From contig JBMSAQ010000033.1 of the NCBI GenBank assembly GCA_049414405.1, positions 1 through 8,463 of the forward strand: 8,463 nucleotides of DNA, read 5' to 3'. Position 1 is the first letter of the stretch, and each line of letters opens with the position of its first letter. Shown piece by piece: positions 1 through 8,463 of this stretch. The stretch is from Candidatus Nanopusillus sp. (GTDB lineage Archaea; Nanobdellota; Nanobdellia; Nanobdellales; Nanobdellaceae). Below the pieces are notes generated by a model. It saw only the letters and a list, made by a program, of their open reading frames with translations. It was not told where the DNA came from and searched no databases. A program made the translations under genes and the position numbers.

Positions 1-1
1 G

Positions 2-3000
2 GGAAATTCTAATAAAACCATATATTTATGGTACGGAAACCCAAACGCTATAAGTTTAAGTAACGGAGATTTGGTTTTTGAATTCTTTGATGATTTTAAT
101 GGAAATACTTTAGATACATCTAAATGGACTGTGAATGGTTATGTGGGGTTTCGAGGAATTTTTTATAATGTTTCGAATTCAATACTTACAATATGGTCGG
201 ATAATAATTGGAGAATTTTAAGAATGAATAGAAATTTTGGACCGAATGATATGATAGTTATTGAGGTAAAATTTAGTAAAACAGCAGATAGTGATTGGCA
301 TACTAACTTTTTAATACAACATAATAGTGATAATAATAGGTTTGGATTTGTTGATATAGGATATTCTGGACTAAATATGGGGGTATATTATATGGTTAAT
401 AGTATAAATTATTATCCAAAAAATTTTGGTCTATTTTCTAATAATGTATGGTATATTTCGAGAATTATAAAAAAGAATAGTACCACTTTATATGTAGATG
501 CTTTAGCTTCAAATAGGACTCTTATTAATTCATATGAAACTATACAATCTGCTTGGTCATCTATAACATGGACTTGGGTTACAATACATGGTGGAAGTAC
601 AGGATATGTGCATGTCAGGTATGATTGGATTTTTGTTAGAAAATATACAAACCCAGAACCAATTGTATTTGTAGGTCCTGAATATATTGATTTTTATGTT
701 ACCATAATAACAAACAACCAAATTATTCCAACCCCGTCCCCATTCCAGCAACAAATAGCAATATGTAACGGAACAATAAATATCGGTCCTAATTTTGCTT
801 ATGTAAATAATCCAACATTATTTAATCAAATACACCCAGATGGTAGAAATGTATATTTTACTACGAATTATGGCGATATTCCCAACATATATTCATGGTA
901 TGCGGGACAATTTATACATGGAAATACACAATGTAAGATTTGGTGGATAAGATTAGATAATGAAATCCCAGCTAATGGTAATATTACGATTTATATAGCA
1001 ATATCTGACCTTAATACAAATTTTTATTCACTATATTATCCATATGTTGGTGCTTCTCCAAATGTATTTCCATCTAGACAATATGATAATGGTAGACATG
1101 TATTTATAGTATATGGATATTTTAATAATACGTTTGATGGTTGGACTGGACACATTTATGCCAGATCATACCCCACAGCTACTTCCTGGGGTATTCAAAT
1201 GTTATACAACAACTTTTATACGGGTACTTATATCTTACCCCCCAACAATGGAAATATTCCTTTAATATCTTTAATTGTTGAAGAAGCATGGTATTTTACC
1301 CATGGTGGACATGCCAACGTAATAGCATTATTTGGAAATACAAGTAATATAATTAATACTAATGTAATAAGTGGTGTTTCTGGATGTTACGCGCCAACAT
1401 CTCACTCATCCACATTTGTACAATTTCAATATAATAGAGGAGAATATACAAGAATAATGTCTGCAGTAACAAATAGAATATTAAGTAATACACATTTTGC
1501 ATATGGGGGTAGGACAATTTATTCATATTTAATACTTACCCCATCATATGTCGAAGCTGGGTATTATATTTATAATTTTAGTCAAGTATGGGTTCCATTA
1601 ACATTATTAAATACATATAGAACATATGTTCACGGATCTACTTATTCTTTTTTAGATTATAATCCTTTCCAACATGGCACATTGTTAATAGGTGCGGGGG
1701 ATTGTTACGATTCCACATCACACCAATATATACAGTGGGTAATAGCCAGAGCATATCCACCATATGGTGTAATGCCATCTTTTTCAATTATAAAACTATT
1801 AACACCCGATCTATTAATAAACACATCAACAAATTTCCAATTTAATGTATCTATATATAACCCATTTTCCGAATATGTAAATTATACGGTATATTTAAAT
1901 AGTTCTATATTAACAACTAATAATGTATCAGTAAATGCATTCCAAGCCTTAATAATTCCATATGAATTTCCTTATTTATTTAATCAATCGGGTGCTTATA
2001 ATTTAACTGTAATAGCATATGGACAAACCTCTAGAGTCACATCTATTTCAACTGCTATATTTAATATTCAATTAGATCAATTAAATGTAACTTTAGAACC
2101 TTATTATACTTATAATAACGTAAATTATACAAACCTTTATAATTCAAACTTAAGGATAACCTATTATTGCATGAGGCCAAATAACACCTTAATAATTTAT
2201 AATAATATAACAAATAGAACATTGCAAATTAATCTTTCATGTAATTACATACAAACAATAAATAATTTGATGGTTAACCTTACCCCAATTTTACAAAATA
2301 ATACTTTAAATCATATTAACGGATCGTTATTATATGGTAATCAATCATTTAGAAATATGAGCTTTATGCCATTATGGGGTACTTTAAATGTGACCTTATT
2401 TACAAATATTCCGGGAATTTCAATATATACATCACCATTAAGTTTAAATTATTCTATAAATGTAAGAGATGTTCTACCAAATGTTGTATGTAATATTACA
2501 TTATATGATAATAATACAATTGTGCAAACACATCAAACAACATTAACAAATGCTTCATCACCAACATATTCATGGACTATATCACAAGCACCAATACATA
2601 ACCTTAGGTGGTATATTTATTGCTATAATCCAGTAAATTTAACATATATTATTGATCAAAGAAATGGTACTTTTTACTATAATAGATTTGATTTTAGAAT
2701 GGAAGATAGTGGAAATATGCCATCAAATATATCTTATTCATTATCAATAGCATGTAATAATGATACTACTGTTTTTAGAAACCCAAATATGAATACTTAT
2801 ACGATATATGCATGGACTAATGATCAATGTGGCTTTATATTAGTATCACAAAATATACAGGGTATTGCTTATAGTATGGGTTATAGTACTAATTTATTAT
2901 CTAGATATGCATATCAATGGACTTTATGTCTATTAAATCCATCATTAGCTTACTTTAATAATCCATTAATAGGTCAAAATCAATATTTAGATACTTTAAT

Positions 3001-4198
3001 TGCTTTAGCAAATCCACAAGCAGGATGTTATTTATTAGGATCTTATTTATACTTATATTCATCTAATGTTTATTATGCACCAGTCCCTGTAAGAATTGGC
3101 GCTTTATATTCTATAAGAGTAAATAATACATTCTTAACAACAGTCCAAGGCCAACAACAACAAGCAATATCTATAGATAATCTTATAGCCCAATCAATTC
3201 TACAAAATAATAGAACTGTTTCAGTAATTGCTGAATTTCCAGTTATAAATGTTACAAACATATCTTCTAATGTATATCAATTAACAGTAACAGCTCCAGC
3301 AAGAATTTCTTCAGCAAATATAATTATATATTATAATGATACCCTTTATAGAAATTATACAATAAACTCTATAGGTACAAATAATTTTACTATCTTATTA
3401 ACAGAATTACCAGAAAATTATACATTTAACTTAACTAATTATATGATTATTACAATAACTTATGAAAATGGATTTGTTCAGCAAATGATTTATCCACCAA
3501 ATGTTCTTAATAATAGGATAACATTACCAGCATTTATGGTTTATTTAATAGCAATTTTCATATTATATGCATGGACTAGAGCATTTTCTTATTATCAGAG
3601 GTTAATAATAGCTGGATTTGGACTAGTTTTATTCTTAATACTTATGTCTATGGTTGTTCTTCAAACAACAGCTCCATTAGTTTTAGCTGCAGGTATCTTC
3701 TTCTTATTCTTATTAGATATGGCTTATACTGAATTTCTTTCTAGATTTACTGGAGAACACCCACTATTAAAACCTTTAAGTTTTTTAATAAGAATGTTTA
3801 TAATAATGACGTTTATAACAAGTGTTGTAGGAGTATTTTTCGGACCCTATGGAATTTATAATTTAGGAATACCTACCTTAAATGATTATATGTATGAAGT
3901 AAATAATACAATTAATAAAATAAATAATACAATAATACAAATGACTAAAAATCCATTCTTCTTCGTTATAGGTTTTATAGAACTTGCAATAAACTTAATA
4001 TATGCAATATCTTTAGGAATTAAGGGAGCAGGAGTATTTATTTCGTTATTTATAGTGCCATTAGCATCAATATTCGGACCTGCAGCAGTATCTGTAGCTC
4101 AAGCAATAGTATCAATAGTATATTTTGGAGCCATAATAGCCATATTGGTATATTTAACTTCACTAGTATTCTCGGCCGTTGGATTAAGACCTTTCTAA
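2..4198 (+). CDS. Giant secreted/membrane-anchored glycoprotein (adhesin or spike-like), 5'-partial. It has lectin modules, a sequon-dense stalk and a C-terminal ~7-TM domain.
   Basis: The frame of the 71..4198 ORF stays open back to nt 2. Nt 2-70 translate as GNSNKTIYLWYGNPNAISLSNGD, so the TTG at 71 is an ORF-caller artefact and the true start lies upstream of the window. The run ...YLWYGNPNA..S.. then VFEFFDDFNG..LD.SKW matches the junction usually seen between a DUF2341 domain and a ConA/LamG-like domain. A 4.1-kb uninterrupted ORF is very unlikely by chance in AT-rich DNA where stop codons are frequent. The stop is TAA at 4196-4198. Confidence 0.88.
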   Translation, partial: GNSNKTIYLWYGNPNAISLSNGDLVFEFFDDFNGNTLDTSKWTVNGYVGFRGIFYNVSNSILTIWSDNNWRILRMNRNFGPNDMIVIEVKFSKTADSDWHTNFLIQHNSDNNRFGFVDIGYSGLNMGVYYMVNSINYYPKNFGLFSNNVWYISRIIKKNSTTLYVDALASNRTLINSYETIQSAWSSITWTWVTIHGGSTGYVHVRYDWIFVRKYTNPEPIVFVGPEYIDFYVTIITNNQIIPTPSPFQQQIAICNGTINIGPNFAYVNNPTLFNQIHPDGRNVYFTTNYGDIPNIYSWYAGQFIHGNTQCKIWWIRLDNEIPANGNITIYIAISDLNTNFYSLYYPYVGASPNVFPSRQYDNGRHVFIVYGYFNNTFDGWTGHIYARSYPTATSWGIQMLYNNFYTGTYILPPNNGNIPLISLIVEEAWYFTHGGHANVIALFGNTSNIINTNVISGVSGCYAPTSHSSTFVQFQYNRGEYTRIMSAVTNRILSNTHFAYGGRTIYSYLILTPSYVEAGYYIYNFSQVWVPLTLLNTYRTYVHGSTYSFLDYNPFQHGTLLIGAGDCYDSTSHQYIQWVIARAYPPYGVMPSFSIIKLLTPDLLINTSTNFQFNVSIYNPFSEYVNYTVYLNSSILTTNNVSVNAFQALIIPYEFPYLFNQSGAYNLTVIAYGQTSRVTSISTAIFNIQLDQLNVTLEPYYTYNNVNYTNLYNSNLRITYYCMRPNNTLIIYNNITNRTLQINLSCNYIQTINNLMVNLTPILQNNTLNHINGSLLYGNQSFRNMSFMPLWGTLNVTLFTNIPGISIYTSPLSLNYSINVRDVLPNVVCNITLYDNNTIVQTHQTTLTNASSPTYSWTISQAPIHNLRWYIYCYNPVNLTYIIDQRNGTFYYNRFDFRMEDSGNMPSNISYSLSIACNNDTTVFRNPNMNTYTIYAWTNDQCGFILVSQNIQGIAYSMGYSTNLLSRYAYQWTLCLLNPSLAYFNNPLIGQNQYLDTLIALANPQAGCYLLGSYLYLYSSNVYYAPVPVRIGALYSIRVNNTFLTTVQGQQQQAISIDNLIAQSILQNNRTVSVIAEFPVINVTNISSNVYQLTVTAPARISSANIIIYYNDTLYRNYTINSIGTNNFTILLTELPENYTFNLTNYMIITITYENGFVQQMIYPPNVLNNRITLPAFMVYLIAIFILYAWTRAFSYYQRLIIAGFGLVLFLILMSMVVLQTTAPLVLAAGIFFLFLLDMAYTEFLSRFTGEHPLLKPLSFLIRMFIIMTFITSVVGVFFGPYGIYNLGIPTLNDYMYEVNNTINKINNTIIQMTKNPFFFVIGFIELAINLIYAISLGIKGAGVFISLFIVPLASIFGPAAVSVAQAIVSIVYFGAIIAILVYLTSLVFSAVGLRPF
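86..661 (+). other. ConA/LamG-like lectin (jelly-roll) module 1 within the giant ORF
   Basis: The module starts at FDDFNGNTLDTSKWTV and ends at YDWIFVRKYTNPEP. The opening F-DDF-G..L...W and the closing W..VRKY...EP are the usual boundaries of Laminin_G_3/ConA-like domains that follow DUF2341. This is motif recognition only. Confidence 0.6.
740..1015 (+). other. DUF2341-like module (second copy; the first lies mostly upstream of the window)
   Basis: The peptide FQQQIAICNG...HPDGRNVYFT...IYSWYAGQF...CKIWWIRLDNEIPANGNITIYIAIS matches the DUF2341 pattern as I recall it: an (r/q)xpItI start, dG.d.rF, yWie, a.vWVkvp.ipa.g..tIyiyy. Confidence 0.5.
1100..1768 (+). other. ConA/LamG-like module 2
   Basis: VFIVYGYFNNTFDGWTG ... 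YIQWVIARAYPPYGVMP repeats the opening (vF..y..F.dgW) and closing (W.i.R.Y.P) signatures of module 1. The giant protein therefore carries a duplicated [DUF2341-like][lectin] unit. Confidence 0.45.
1808..3520 (+). other. Beta-rich, sequon-dense, lysine-free stalk region (probably several Ig/CARDB-like domains)
   Basis: This covers aa ~580-1150 of the track ORF. It shows alternating hydrophobic/polar beta-strand patterns, for example FQFNVSIYNPFSEYVNYTVYLNSS...GAYNLTVIAYG. By hand count 36 of the ~46 N-X-S/T sequons lie here, and the region contains no Lys at all. Confidence 0.55.
3527..4180 (+). other. C-terminal polytopic membrane domain (~7 predicted TM helices)
   Basis: Hydrophobic stretches lie at aa ~1153-1172, 1177-1198, 1200-1216, 1236-1258, 1295-1316, 1319-1335 and 1342-1369. 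The only long polar loop (aa 1259-1294) carries two NNT sequons. That fits an extracellular position if the ectodomain is outside. Confidence 0.7.
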
Positions 4199-4199
4199 A

Positions 4200-4580
4200 A
4201 TGGATCAATTAAATGTTACAGCTATTGGAACTGAATTAATAAATTTAACAGATACAATAGTAAAGTTAATTACATTTAAAGATATTTATTCTTACATCCT
4301 TTTAGAAATATTAGTTATAGCTTTTTATATAGCTATGGAAAGTAATAGAGTAGAAAGTATTAAAACTTTGGTAATGGGTATAATGATTATTATGTGGATA
4401 TTTTTAATTGCAATATTAGCGCTTAATAGCATAGGATATATAAACATTACTGGACCACAGCTATATACTTTCTTTATGATGCCTACAGTATTAGTAACAG
4501 TAATAGCTTTAATGTTACCATTGTTAAGTTATTATAAAGGTTCTGGAGGCTCAGACTTTCAAAGACCTCCTTCTCTATAA
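4200..4580 (+). CDS. Small integral membrane protein (3 predicted TM helices, N-out/C-in)
   Basis: The ATG lies 1 nt after the TAA of the giant ORF (taaAatg). TM segments lie at aa ~29-46, 55-76 and 88-110. Sequons (NVT, NLT) sit in the N-terminal tail and NIT in the TM2-TM3 loop, both on the same predicted (outer) side. I recognised no family. Confidence 0.72.
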   Translation: MDQLNVTAIGTELINLTDTIVKLITFKDIYSYILLEILVIAFYIAMESNRVESIKTLVMGIMIIMWIFLIAILALNSIGYINITGPQLYTFFMMPTVLVTVIALMLPLLSYYKGSGGSDFQRPPSL

Positions 4581-5914
4581 TGATGAAGATTGAAACCTTA
4601 CAAGATATACGTAAATTAACATCTCAAGATCTTTTAAATGTTTTTAAAGAAACGAGGGTATTTCAGATTACTTTAAATAAAGTATGGGCTAATAGAACGG
4701 ATATTAAAAAAAGATTTATAAATCCAATAGATTTTATAGAGAGTACATCTAAAGATATAGCTGATGCTATTAGTGCGCCAATTGATGAGGATTATTGGTT
4801 AATTATTTTAGGAGAACCAGGTACGGGTAAATCAGCATTATCTATTGCTTTCTATAAATATATAATGAAGCATTTAGGTTATACAGATGAACAAATTAGA
4901 GAAAACATATATTTAGATGTATGTTATCTCCCATATGATTATATAGGTAGAATAAATTTACATAGTAAACAAATTCAAGAAAGAGGTCGTATATTTCCTT
5001 ATCCAATTGTATTAGATGAAGCTCATAATATGTTTGATTTATTTGCAGAAGGAGCTACGGGTATTGCGAGAAAAATACTTCAGAGAATTTTTGAAATTAG
5101 AGAATACAGATTAGCACACATAGTTAATACCCAAATACCAAGGCAATTAGCAAGTAGATCTAGAGAAAGATTTCATTCATTAATAGTTTTATGGAAAGAA
5201 CCAATATATATCGGAGAGGGTTCTACGCCACTTATGGAAGAATTGTATCTCAGTTATACCAAAAATATATTAAAAAAGGATATTGGTGATGGTAAAATTG
5301 GTTACTTTTTATGGGGGGCTTTTTACAATAAAGAAGTAACACATTCTATAATGAGATGGGTAATAAAACATCAAATTAGTATTGAAGAAGTTAGACCAAT
5401 TCTAAAGAAATTTACTCCAGATTTTTTCTTTCCTATGCTTTTATTATTACATGAATCTACAGAATTAAGAAAGGTTTATGCAGAAATCAAATTATATAAT
5501 AATTCTATAAAATCTTTATACGATGCTTTTGGAATTAAAGGCAGTAAGAAATCTACTTTCTTAAAAATATTAGTAGAATTAGGCAAAAATATAAATAATA
5601 TAAAAGATAAAAAAGATTCTAAAGGTAATTATATAGTAGATCCCTCAATTTCGGTAAGAGTTGATAATGAAAAAATAGTAGAAGCATTACAATATATAGG
5701 AAATGTATCTAAAGAATATGTGTATGAAGAATCTATAGATACTGATCAAAATATTAAAGTTGAAACTTATAAACGCATTAAAAGAATTATCCATGAAGAA
5801 TATTATACAAAAATAAAATCAATTCATCCCGATATTTATTTCTTCTTAAAGAATAACTATTATATAATTGAAAAAAGAGCTAAATTACATGCTGCTACCG
5901 GTTATCAACTTTAG
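4580..5914 (+). CDS. P-loop NTPase (AAA+-like / Zot-like ASCE ATPase) with an uncharacterised ~240-aa C-terminal region
   Basis: The start overlaps the upstream stop (TAATG, 4578-4582). Motifs seen are Walker A GEPGTGKS, Walker B PIVLDEAH, and then HIVNTQIPRQLASRSRERF (sensor-1 Asn/Thr plus an Arg-rich box resembling AAA+ box VII, or the TQ....R.. motif of Zot/pI-type ATPases). There are no TM helices. Confidence 0.9.
   Translation: MMKIETLQDIRKLTSQDLLNVFKETRVFQITLNKVWANRTDIKKRFINPIDFIESTSKDIADAISAPIDEDYWLIILGEPGTGKSALSIAFYKYIMKHLGYTDEQIRENIYLDVCYLPYDYIGRINLHSKQIQERGRIFPYPIVLDEAHNMFDLFAEGATGIARKILQRIFEIREYRLAHIVNTQIPRQLASRSRERFHSLIVLWKEPIYIGEGSTPLMEELYLSYTKNILKKDIGDGKIGYFLWGAFYNKEVTHSIMRWVIKHQISIEEVRPILKKFTPDFFFPMLLLLHESTELRKVYAEIKLYNNSIKSLYDAFGIKGSKKSTFLKILVELGKNINNIKDKKDSKGNYIVDPSISVRVDNEKIVEALQYIGNVSKEYVYEESIDTDQNIKVETYKRIKRIIHEEYYTKIKSIHPDIYFFLKNNYYIIEKRAKLHAATGYQL
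4811..4834 (+). other. Walker A (P-loop) GEPGTGKS
   Basis: Codons gga gaa cca ggt acg ggt aaa tca read directly from the sequence; this fits the GxxGxGK[ST] consensus. Confidence 0.95.
5006..5026 (+). other. Walker B IVLDEAH
   Basis: Codons att gta tta gat gaa gct cat give a hydrophobic strand followed by DE, about 60 aa after Walker A. Confidence 0.9.
5120..5173 (+). other. Sensor-1 / arginine-finger-like motif IVNTQIPRQLASRSRERF
   Basis: It lies ~35 aa after Walker B. The pattern hh.(N/T)(T/Q)......L.SR.R.RF resembles AAA+ sensor-1 plus box VII (compare RuvB ...ATT....L..PLRDRF and RFC ...LASRC). Confidence 0.55.
5871..5876 (-). terminator. Oligo-T (T6 on the minus strand) terminator candidate for the 138-aa membrane protein gene
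   Basis: A6 on the + strand at 5871-5876 gives CTCTTTTTTC on the minus strand, ~19 nt downstream of the minus-strand stop (5895-5897). It lies inside the NTPase coding sequence. Confidence 0.4.
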
Positions 5915-7962: not shown

Positions 7963-8463
7963 TTAATAATTAGATACAAAAATAAGAGTCCACGTTTTCT
8001 TTTTTTCGCCTTTTTTCTTTTCCATAGATTTTTTCTTTTCTAATTTTTCAATTTTATAGTTTTTTAATATATCTTTAATAAGATTAAAAGCTTTATCATC
8101 AACTTTTAACAAAAATTTTCCTTTAATTTTTGTTAATATGTTTGCCATATCTCTGATATCTTTAATAGTAAATGTAATCCCATAATAATTATCAGATCTA
8201 TCTGGATAAGGAGGGTCTAAATAAAAAACTGTTTTTTCACTATCATATAATTGAATAACTTTTCTAAAATCTAAATTTTCGATTATTATATCCTGCCAAT
8301 TTTTTGTAAAATCTAAAATAGCCCTTATTTTTTTTCTAAAGGCTCTTGCATCATTTCTTTTTGGATTAATTACACAACTAAATCCTTTTTTAGGTCCACC
8401 CATAAAAGATGTGTTTACTAAATAGAAAAATAAAGCTGCAGCTTCTAATTCACCTAAATTTCT
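7963..8463 (-). CDS. N6-adenine DNA methyltransferase, D12 class (Dam-like), 5'-partial (N-terminal AdoMet-binding half is off the window)
   Basis: The minus-strand frame is open beyond the track's Met at 8403 to the window edge (RNLGELEAAALFFYLVNTSFMGG...). The layout matches Dam-family proteins as I recall them: AALF.YL(N)...F.G, then ~55 aa, then (V)FYLDPPY (catalytic motif IV), then ~80 aa including a hydrophobic strand (GKFLLKVDD) and a basic tail. Confidence 0.85.
   Translation of the reverse strand, partial: RNLGELEAAALFFYLVNTSFMGGPKKGFSCVINPKRNDARAFRKKIRAILDFTKNWQDIIIENLDFRKVIQLYDSEKTVFYLDPPYPDRSDNYYGITFTIKDIRDMANILTKIKGKFLLKVDDKAFNLIKDILKNYKIEKLEKKKSMEKKKGEKKKTWTLIFVSNY
7995..8016 (+). 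terminator. Oligo-T terminator candidate for the 145-aa gene, embedded in the convergent methyltransferase gene
   Basis: T4 at 7995-7998, T7 at 8000-8006 and T6 at 8011-8016 on the + strand. These are the complement of the Lys-rich tail (EKKKSMEKKKGEKKK) of the minus-strand gene. Confidence 0.45.
8206..8217 (-). other. Catalytic DPPY motif (motif IV) of the N6-adenine methyltransferase
   Basis: The + strand ataaggagggtc has reverse complement gac cct cct tat, which encodes D-P-P-Y. Confidence 0.9.

Follow-up and report, generated by a model that had tools for sequence, protein, structure and literature searches.

Here, we describe a lysine desert in a giant surface glycoprotein encoded on contig JBMSAQ010000033.1 (hereafter C33) of the Candidatus Nanopusillus sp. 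assembly GCA_049414405.1. The window analyzed is this whole contig, 8463 nucleotides (nt) in length, from a 695-kb genome of 42 contigs with 25.2% G+C that is 92.6% complete. Over 1042 codons, the giant gene specifies only two Lys residues, and 658 consecutive codons specify none. We consider it probable that the desert is a selected, inherited trait of the exposed glycoproteins of hot-spring Nanoarchaeota and of an element or virus resembling Nanoarchaeotal virus 1 (NAV1). The low-charge baseline of the desert belongs to a known trend, and most of the desert is the family-wide expression of a known adaptation, because the depletion is common to the secretome of the source genome, the protein family, its remote relatives, a protein of the Sulfolobus virus SMV1 and the literature. 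Superimposed on this family baseline is a discrimination of Lys against Arg and His that is specific to the clade of the window protein and is real but unexplained.

The lysine desert and its statistical support

Residues are numbered here across the whole open reading frame (ORF) from nt 2; the first-pass annotation of the contig, made from the letters and an ORF list, numbered them from the TTG at nt 71. The gene, its domains and the desert are laid out as follows.

2-4198, plus strand: ORF of the giant surface glycoprotein, 1398 amino acids (aa), 5' end truncated by the contig end (ORF list and translation)
2-691, plus strand: head, residues 1-230, the end of DUF2341 followed by a LamG/ConA-like domain (PF10102 match and domains of relatives)
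692-1789, plus strand: conserved lectin-like module, residues 231-596, with 1 Lys and 11 Arg (homolog coverage map)
1790-3514, plus strand: beta-rich, sequon-dense stalk, residues 597-1171, with 1 Lys (K598) and 17 Arg
3515-4195, plus strand: hydrophobic C-terminal anchor of about seven helices, residues 1172-1398 (hydropathy scan and long helices in the AlphaFold2 model)
644-3769, plus strand: span with only two Lys, residues 215-1256, 1042 codons, holding K312 (nt 935-937) and K598 (nt 1793-1795)
1796-3769, plus strand: unbroken Lys-free run, residues 599-1256, 658 aa (recount)

The first-pass annotation had reported about 1040 codons with two Lys and had allowed that a recount might find more. 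The recount returned identical positions (18, 67, 70, 117, 134, 135, 191, 289, 575, 1234, 1283, 1293 and 1318 in the earlier numbering) and no additional Lys, which confirms the span. The description of the protein that accompanied the earlier count also holds. Acidic residues are sparse across the whole protein (Asp 2.6%, Glu 1.6%), and Asn (11.5%), Tyr (8.5%), Thr (8.5%) and Ser (7.4%) dominate; Lys and Arg make up 1.0% and 3.1%, respectively. The positive charge is nearly all Arg, the core (module plus stalk, residues 231-1171) containing 2 Lys, 28 Arg and 14 His. The proteins encoded nearby are Lys-rich, namely, the ATPase (9.7%), the 153-aa (11.1%), 157-aa (9.6%) and 145-aa (6.9%) proteins, and the methyltransferase tail (16.3%).

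To the 811 ORFs called in the genome by a simple longest-ORF script, which covered 92% of the sequence, Lys contributes 9.45% of residues, and the base frequencies of the giant gene itself predict 7.1-7.4%. A stretch of 658 aa without Lys has a probability of 4e-29 if the proteome rate is assumed, 1e-22 with the rate expected from composition and 1e-11 with that of the genome's own secretome (3.74%); with the 14 Lys of the protein placed at random along the chain, a gap of 658 aa arises with P = 0.002. Selection, and not base composition, as proposed in the first-pass annotation, is thus the source of the desert, given the expected Lys content of 7.1-7.4% and chance probabilities of 4e-29 to 1e-11. 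The run is the longest Lys-free run among the 811 ORFs and, at 658 aa, belongs to the long class (at least 150 aa). It is also conserved: relatives carry Lys-free runs of 186-901 aa.

Lysine depletion in the secretome and in the protein family

Among the proteins of the genome that lack hydrophobic segments, Lys accounts for 11.1% of the pooled residues (median, 11.7%), Arg for 4.3% and His for 1.3%. The ectodomains of signal-peptide proteins have a median Lys content of 3.5%, compared with the 11.7% median of the former set (Mann-Whitney P = 6e-30), and 25 non-paralogous ectodomains bearing N-x-S/T glycosylation sequons contain, when pooled, 3.74% Lys and 1.76% Arg. Secreted proteins are thus about 3-fold depleted of Lys relative to non-membrane proteins, and many large surface proteins of the genome contain 0.7-2% Lys, with Lys-free runs of 150-500 aa. 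Across the secreted proteins, sequon density and Lys content showed no significant correlation.

The first-pass annotation had reasoned that, if all secreted proteins were equal in Lys, the desert would be ordinary adaptation. The secretome is indeed depleted as a class (3.74% vs 11.1%), but equality does not extend to the core of the giant protein: with 2 Lys in 941 residues (0.21%), it lies 18-fold below the secretome pool (P = 2e-13) and 9-fold below the 1.87% Lys of the lowest-ranking large ectodomain that is not a paralog (P = 4e-6). All basic residues of the core together (Lys, Arg and His) amount to 4.7%, compared with 11.1%, 4.3% and 1.3% for the three residues, respectively, in non-membrane proteins.

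As a separate observation, small membrane proteins without any Lys are encoded at C12 4759-5178, C13 8433-8837 and C23 235-1029, and the last of these, 265 aa in length, also lacks Asp and Glu.

Dozens of database proteins match the window ORF, with identity of up to 93%, some of them from Nanopusillus acidilobi and Nanobsidianus stetteri. Twelve proteins that bear the same C-terminal anchor are 42-65% identical to the window protein, and residues 606-1398 show 64% identity over 801 residues to NV1_37 of NAV1. In the ectodomains of 31 aligned sequences, all charged residues are scarce (Lys 0.63%, Arg 0.73%, Asp 2.3%, Glu 1.9%), and Lys-free runs reach 901 aa; the remaining Lys of the family reside mostly in the signal peptide and the anchor. 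A search with the lectin-like module against 1.84 billion representative sequences identified 189 relatives, of which the 147 new ones have a median Lys content of 1.3% and a median Arg content of 1.05%. Large DUF2341 proteins from other archaeal and bacterial lineages (among them Thermococcus, Archaeoglobus and Aenigmatarchaeota) contain 2-9% Lys and 8-15% Asp plus Glu.

When a collection of phage genomes, from which NAV1 is absent, was searched with the giant protein, the sole match was a 128-aa stretch of a 1550-aa SMV1 protein (HG322870.1, 12117-16769, annotated as "conserved archaeal viral protein"), with 37% identity to window residues 315-442. The SMV1 protein is likewise poor in charge (Lys 1.0%, Arg 0.6%, Asp 1.6%, Glu 1.9%), and the match connects a bicaudavirus protein with the nanoarchaeal module. 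A depletion of Lys specific to virions was considered and rejected: the anchor-bearing, element-type relatives and the shorter cellular relatives are equal in ectodomain Lys.

Another contig of the genome (C21, 1-2208; 2.2 kb) consists of a single ORF, open at both ends, that is 73% identical to window residues 152-883 and contains 0.7% Lys and 3.1% Arg. This is the third version of the giant gene in the genome and stems either from another strain or from an additional paralog, at which the assembly breaks.

Arginine and histidine gained without lysine

The window protein, its relative P0002 and the paralog encoded on C13 form what we refer to as the window clade. The core of the window protein contains 28 Arg and 14 His, compared with 1-8 Arg and 0-4 His in relatives outside the clade. 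Conservation across the compared close homologs is limited to four Arg (583, 725, 1031 and 1039), and about 24 are clade-specific, occupying sites with Asn, Ser, Gln, Tyr or Gly in relatives; many of the clade Arg are shared with a 66%-identical paralog. In total, the gains of the clade amount to about 24 Arg and about 10 His, as opposed to only 2 Lys. The mutational supply does not account for this imbalance, because Lys comprises 7.4% and Arg 6.2% of the non-synonymous neighbors reachable in one step, which slightly favors Lys; 2 Lys among 26 gains has a binomial P of 7e-7. The Lys:Arg ratio of the core is 2:28, compared with 320:150 in the secretome (Fisher P = 1e-11), and that of the C13 paralog stalk is 2:16.

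These gains are mirrored in the predicted isoelectric point (pI) of the ectodomain, which is 6.24-6.61 in the window clade (about 6.4 for the window protein), compared with 3.37-4.71 (median, 3.78) in 28 relatives outside the clade, including 3.71 for Nps_03075 of N. acidilobi and 3.77 for NV1_37. The three blocks of the window ectodomain each carry between -1.3 and +0.5 net charges at pH 6.5. The other large surface glycoproteins of the genome mostly have a pI of 5.0-6.7, and the median for cytoplasmic proteins is 8.6. In a quick maximum-likelihood tree, midpoint-rooted and built from sequences of unequal composition, the high-pI clade received an SH-aLRT support of 100 and branched beside NV1_37, nested within the anchor-bearing group of low pI, which makes the Arg/His-rich state look derived.

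Architecture of the giant protein

The truncated 5' end of the gene is found on another contig. The reverse complement of C12 terminates with an exact 141-nt overlap to window positions 1-141, and the missing N-terminal portion of about 107 residues, among them the signal peptide and the N-terminal half of DUF2341, is encoded on C12 (3-458, minus strand), in which fragment DUF2341 is complete (111 bits). The giant gene is thus divided between C12 and C33 by an assembly break, and the full protein consists of about 1513 aa; P0002, which is 93% identical to the window protein, is 1513 aa long. The join is real because C13 bears a collinear paralogous block.

Within the window, the remainder of DUF2341 is recognized by PF10102 at residues 2-44 (E 1.2e-12; 48.5 bits vs a gathering score of 23.4), and both PF13385 and PF10102 are found in relatives of the giant protein. 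The charged residues of the head number 8 Lys, 9 Arg, 13 Asp and 5 Glu. The lectin-like module that follows is the start of the mature protein in most relatives and is present in at least eight proteins of the source genome. AlphaFold2 modeled residues 231-590 with a block-mean predicted local distance difference test score (pLDDT) of about 60-87, apart from one low stretch at approximately 337-368. Residues 364-589 (nt 1091-1768), for which the block-mean pLDDT was mostly 65-87, matched ERGIC-53, VIP36 and legume lectins with a Foldseek probability of 1.00; VIA-align gave Z 18-20 and a root-mean-square deviation of 2.6-3.9 A, with about 190 residues aligned. This portion of the module is accordingly predicted to adopt the L-type lectin fold.

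Sequons in the stalk reach 8-11 per 100 residues across positions 601-800, as counted per 100 aa. AlphaFold2 predicted beta strands in this region, with low pLDDT (the mean for the whole core being 53.7), and sub-threshold leads pointed to beta-sandwich domains of the CarboxypepD_reg, PKD and MG types. The anchor contains four Lys, at positions 1257, 1306, 1316 and 1341, of which K1257 and K1341 would be located in cytoplasmic loops according to the positive-inside rule.

The largest loop of the anchor also contains a 21-nt tandem duplication (window 3900-3942) that repeats N-N-T-I and creates two sequons beside K1306. Scans for Rfam families, tRNAs and tandem repeats yielded nothing relevant. 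Two ORFs run antisense inside the giant gene.

557-754, minus strand: antisense ORF
3073-3261, minus strand: antisense ORF

Explanations for the desert

The account that we favor, on balance, combines an inherited, charge-poor design, with a net charge near zero at the pH of the habitat, and a further exclusion that is specific to Lys. At low pH, carboxylates would be protonated, and unpaired cations would destabilize the protein. The core of the family largely dispenses with basic residues and has few acidic ones, and its polarity would presumably be provided by Asn, Tyr, Thr, Ser and N-glycans; the ectodomain would thereby attain approximately zero net charge at the extracellular pH. For most members of the family, the predicted neutral point lies at pH 3.4-4.7, which would match strongly acidic springs, and the window clade would have been re-tuned to roughly pH 5.5-6.5 through the gains of Arg and His. 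What drives this design would be the need for stability and for a low net charge in water that is hot and acidic to mildly acidic. Arg might be preferred over Lys for structural or ligand-related reasons, such as hydrogen bonding, cation-pi interactions with the abundant Tyr (8.5%) or binding of anionic glycans; alternatively, the absence of Lys might reflect the greater chemical lability of this residue on a long-lived particle at 80 C, or the action of a Lys-directed enzyme.

Published observations are in line with the charge-poor baseline. A review of amylases concludes that acid-stable extracellular enzymes contain fewer Lys, Arg and His (PMC6172347). In the surface-layer (S-layer) protein of N. 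acidilobi, sites for proteolysis are too few for trypsin-based proteomics, and the host of this organism grows best at 80-82 C and pH 3.5 (PMC4935971). Very low pH and high temperature, as experienced by thermoacidophile ectodomains, were among the options of the first-pass annotation, and this option is borne out in part: all relatives are poor in Lys and Arg and have a pI of 3.4-4.7, but the head of the window protein keeps 8 Lys, and the pI of the clade is about 6.4.

Several points weigh against the combination of low charge and Lys exclusion as we propose it. The 8 Lys of the head (3.5%) are all conserved in a 69%-identical paralog, and 28 homologous segments of other lineages average 4.0%, so that the head is not depleted and Lys is not excluded by the outside medium in itself. 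In the other surface glycoproteins of the genome, Lys is about as frequent as Arg, and hence charge tuning alone does not explain a gain restricted to Arg and His. The pI values were calculated from sequence only, ignoring glycans, burial and pKa shifts. The secreted set was delineated by crude means, namely, a hydropathy predictor and simple ORF calling. Finally, no neutrophile homolog of the core was found, and the comparison with other lineages comprises the head domain and whole DUF2341 proteins.

Among the alternatives, the one that survives best, although it seems to us unlikely, is a hazard specific to Lys where the core of the spike works, such that Lys was purged and Arg was free to accumulate. 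Candidate agents would be heat-driven adducts (glycation, carbonyl, carbamyl) that build up on a particle which persists for long and is not repaired, a protease directed at Lys, or an enzyme of the host or the community that cross-links or tags proteins. The approximately 24 Arg gained against 2 Lys, despite a mutational supply that favors Lys (P = 7e-7), are what such a hazard would produce, as are the Lys:Arg ratios of 2:28 in the core, compared with 320:150 in the secretome, and of 2:16 in the C13 paralog stalk. However, eight conserved Lys lie in the distal head of the same exposed chain, where a diffusible agent should strike them too, and their conservation argues against any agent that attacks every exposed Lys. 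In most relatives, moreover, Arg is as rare as Lys, which points to avoidance of charge and not of Lys; reactions of amines proceed slowly at acidic pH; and no candidate enzyme was identified.

A more speculative extension, to which we assign a low probability, is that the exclusion of Lys accompanied by free gain of Arg marks proteins that meet another cell. In ultra-small archaeal symbionts, selection against Lys in the exposed cores of giant proteins of the surface or the virion would then come from Lys-directed attack (cross-linking, tagging or cleavage) at the symbiont-host or virus-host interface. If that were the case, a Lys desert would be a marker of contact proteins recognizable from sequence alone.

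Plain acidophile adaptation of the whole organism, with nothing particular to the window protein, is somewhat less probable still. The Lys depletion of the secretome as a class and the many large signal-peptide proteins with 0.7-2% Lys and Lys-free runs of 150-500 aa agree with it. It does not account for the 0.21% Lys of the core, compared with 3.74% in the pool and 1.87% in the lowest large non-paralog (P = 2e-13 and 4e-6, respectively), or for a head domain that is not depleted. In addition, the pI of about 6.4 in the clade and of mostly 5.0-6.7 in the genome's remaining large surface glycoproteins suggests that the habitat of this particular organism is not strongly acidic.

A classical lysine desert that evades ubiquitin-like tagging (of the SAMP/Urm1 type) and the proteasome is very unlikely, and the avoidance of urmylation-type tagging, which the first-pass annotation had listed, does not fit the predicted topology. 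The genome does encode a ThiF-type E1-like protein and two proteasome subunits, which operate in the cytoplasm, and the run is far longer than the lengths given in the lysine-desert literature (PMC10169902, PMC10665810, PMC13696103). However, the desert is predicted to lie outside the cell, downstream of the signal peptide, in a sequon-dense region and before the first membrane helix, whereas the two predicted cytoplasmic loops each carry a Lys and the cytoplasmic neighbors are Lys-rich. Mutational bias and chance can be practically dismissed, as can an artefact of the reading frame or of the assembly: the only assembly issue is the split of the gene between C12 and C33, a join confirmed by the collinear paralogous block on C13, and base composition predicts 7.4% Lys in a frame that stays open for 1398 codons and has dozens of database matches at up to 93% identity.

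The gain of Arg and His without Lys offers a clean, testable discrimination between residues of the same charge. If the link between pI and pH is true, the composition of the ectodomain could serve to infer, with nothing but sequence, the habitat pH of uncultured hot-spring symbionts and their viruses. Such proteins are also nearly invisible to trypsin-based proteomics.

Gene neighborhood and the mobile-element question

A collinear block of about 16 genes occurs twice in the genome, at C13 4824-17865 and across C12 (reverse complement) plus window 2-5914. The protein identity between the two copies ranges from 28% to 93%, and the giant gene, a small membrane protein gene and an ATPase gene are in the same order in both; the giant-gene copy of the C13 block encodes 1131 aa. 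The two blocks may represent two related NAV1-like elements in one bin. The genes of the window that accompany the giant gene are as follows.

4200-4580, plus strand: 126-aa protein with three hydrophobic segments, 46% identical to the C13 protein g326, which likewise follows the giant gene
4580-5914, plus strand: 444-aa P-loop ATPase, 9.7% Lys, which adjoins the giant gene in the C13 copy too
7963-8463, minus strand: D12-class N6-adenine DNA methyltransferase, C-terminal part, the gene continuing beyond the contig end

The giant gene, the 126-aa gene and the ATPase gene are spaced by a 1-nt gap (window 4195-4203) and a 1-nt overlap of start and stop codons (4577-4583), a spacing that suggests co-translation of the three genes as one unit. 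The product of a gene at the opposite end of the C13 block shows 88% identity to the methyltransferase. Relatives of the ATPase and of the giant protein list longest contigs of equal size (19217, 5608 and 7188 nt), which suggests that they reside on the same metagenome contigs; an identical ATPase is also encoded on a 113-kb contig elsewhere. In searches of PHROGs, the giant protein had no match, the ATPase had only weak P-loop matches, and no structural protein was matched. Five IMG/VR loci that match the giant protein were rejected as relatives of the element, given that only the DUF2341 head is shared and that there is no synteny with genes of the window, C12 or C13.

In both blocks, a large soluble protein is encoded directly upstream of the giant gene (C12 859-4230, minus strand, 1124 aa; C13 9362-12364, 1001 aa). 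These proteins contain 3.6% Lys and 7.0% Arg, and 4.9% of each, respectively, an Arg content equal to or above that of Lys being unusual for this genome, and neither had a Pfam match.

N-glycosylation of the giant protein is presumed from its sequons. A Pfam STT3 search of the 92.6%-complete genome returned no match. We rejected this negative result as proof that N-glycosylation is absent, because a candidate exists: C39 (1643-5218, minus strand) encodes a 1192-aa protein with 18 hydrophobic segments, no Pfam match and a WWDYG motif at residue 760, which makes it a candidate for a highly divergent AglB oligosaccharyltransferase.

Elsewhere in the genome, reverse gyrase is split, its helicase and topoisomerase halves being encoded on separate contigs (C3 24720-26459 and C22 47592-49448). 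A split reverse gyrase is known from Nanoarchaeum equitans and is expected for a hyperthermophilic nanoarchaeon.

Comparison with known systems

The closest known counterpart is NV1_37, a hypothetical protein of NAV1, which shares with the window protein the stalk and seven-helix anchor (64% identity), part of the lectin-like module (57% identity) and a charge-poor, sequon-rich composition, with 1.0% Lys and a Lys-free run of 579 aa. Unlike the window protein, NV1_37 lacks the DUF2341/LamG head, and it contains 0.9% Arg and has a pI of 3.77, compared with 3.0% Arg and a pI of 6.4 for the window protein.

The envelope proteins of thermoacidophiles (SlaA/SlaB, Nps760 and the 1550-aa SMV1 protein) are similarly large, beta-rich and exposed, with many sequons and few basic residues. 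SlaA of Sulfolobus, with 31 predicted sequons, retains its structure between pH 4 and pH 10 (PMC10903991), and Nps760 of N. acidilobi escaped trypsin-based proteomics through its scarce proteolytic sites (PMC4935971). The window protein differs from these in that positive charge is present, almost purely as Arg and His, and in that its pI is about 6.4 and not acidic; its anchor is a seven-helix C-terminal domain and not a single helix or a partner protein. Acid-stable secreted enzymes also contain fewer basic residues than their relatives from other habitats, for which the rationale is reduced positive repulsion once carboxylates are protonated (PMC6172347). In those enzymes, however, the reductions are modest and often accompanied by a surface excess of Asp and Glu, whereas the window core is nearly free of Lys over about 940 residues, low in Asp and Glu, and retains Arg. 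With L-type lectins, window residues 364-589 share the predicted fold but only 6-11% sequence identity; the lectin-like module might bind sugars.

Finally, the window desert resembles the lysine deserts that are associated with ubiquitin and Pup in being a long, conserved Lys-free stretch in a Lys-rich background that is not compositional (PMC10169902, PMC10665810, PMC13696103). Those deserts occur in cytosolic, often disordered proteins that face Lys-directed ligases, whereas the window desert is predicted to be folded, glycosylated and extracellular, its sequon-dense region lying, in the predicted topology, between the signal peptide and the first membrane helix, away from cytosolic Lys-directed conjugation. 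In the parts of the 2026 lysine-desert review that a term search reaches (PMC13696103), acidophiles and extracellular or secreted proteins are not mentioned. To date, lysine deserts have been treated almost exclusively as a means of escaping ubiquitin-like tagging within cells; the desert described here is very long, conserved and extreme in statistical terms, and it lies in an extracellular archaeal glycoprotein that is probably viral.

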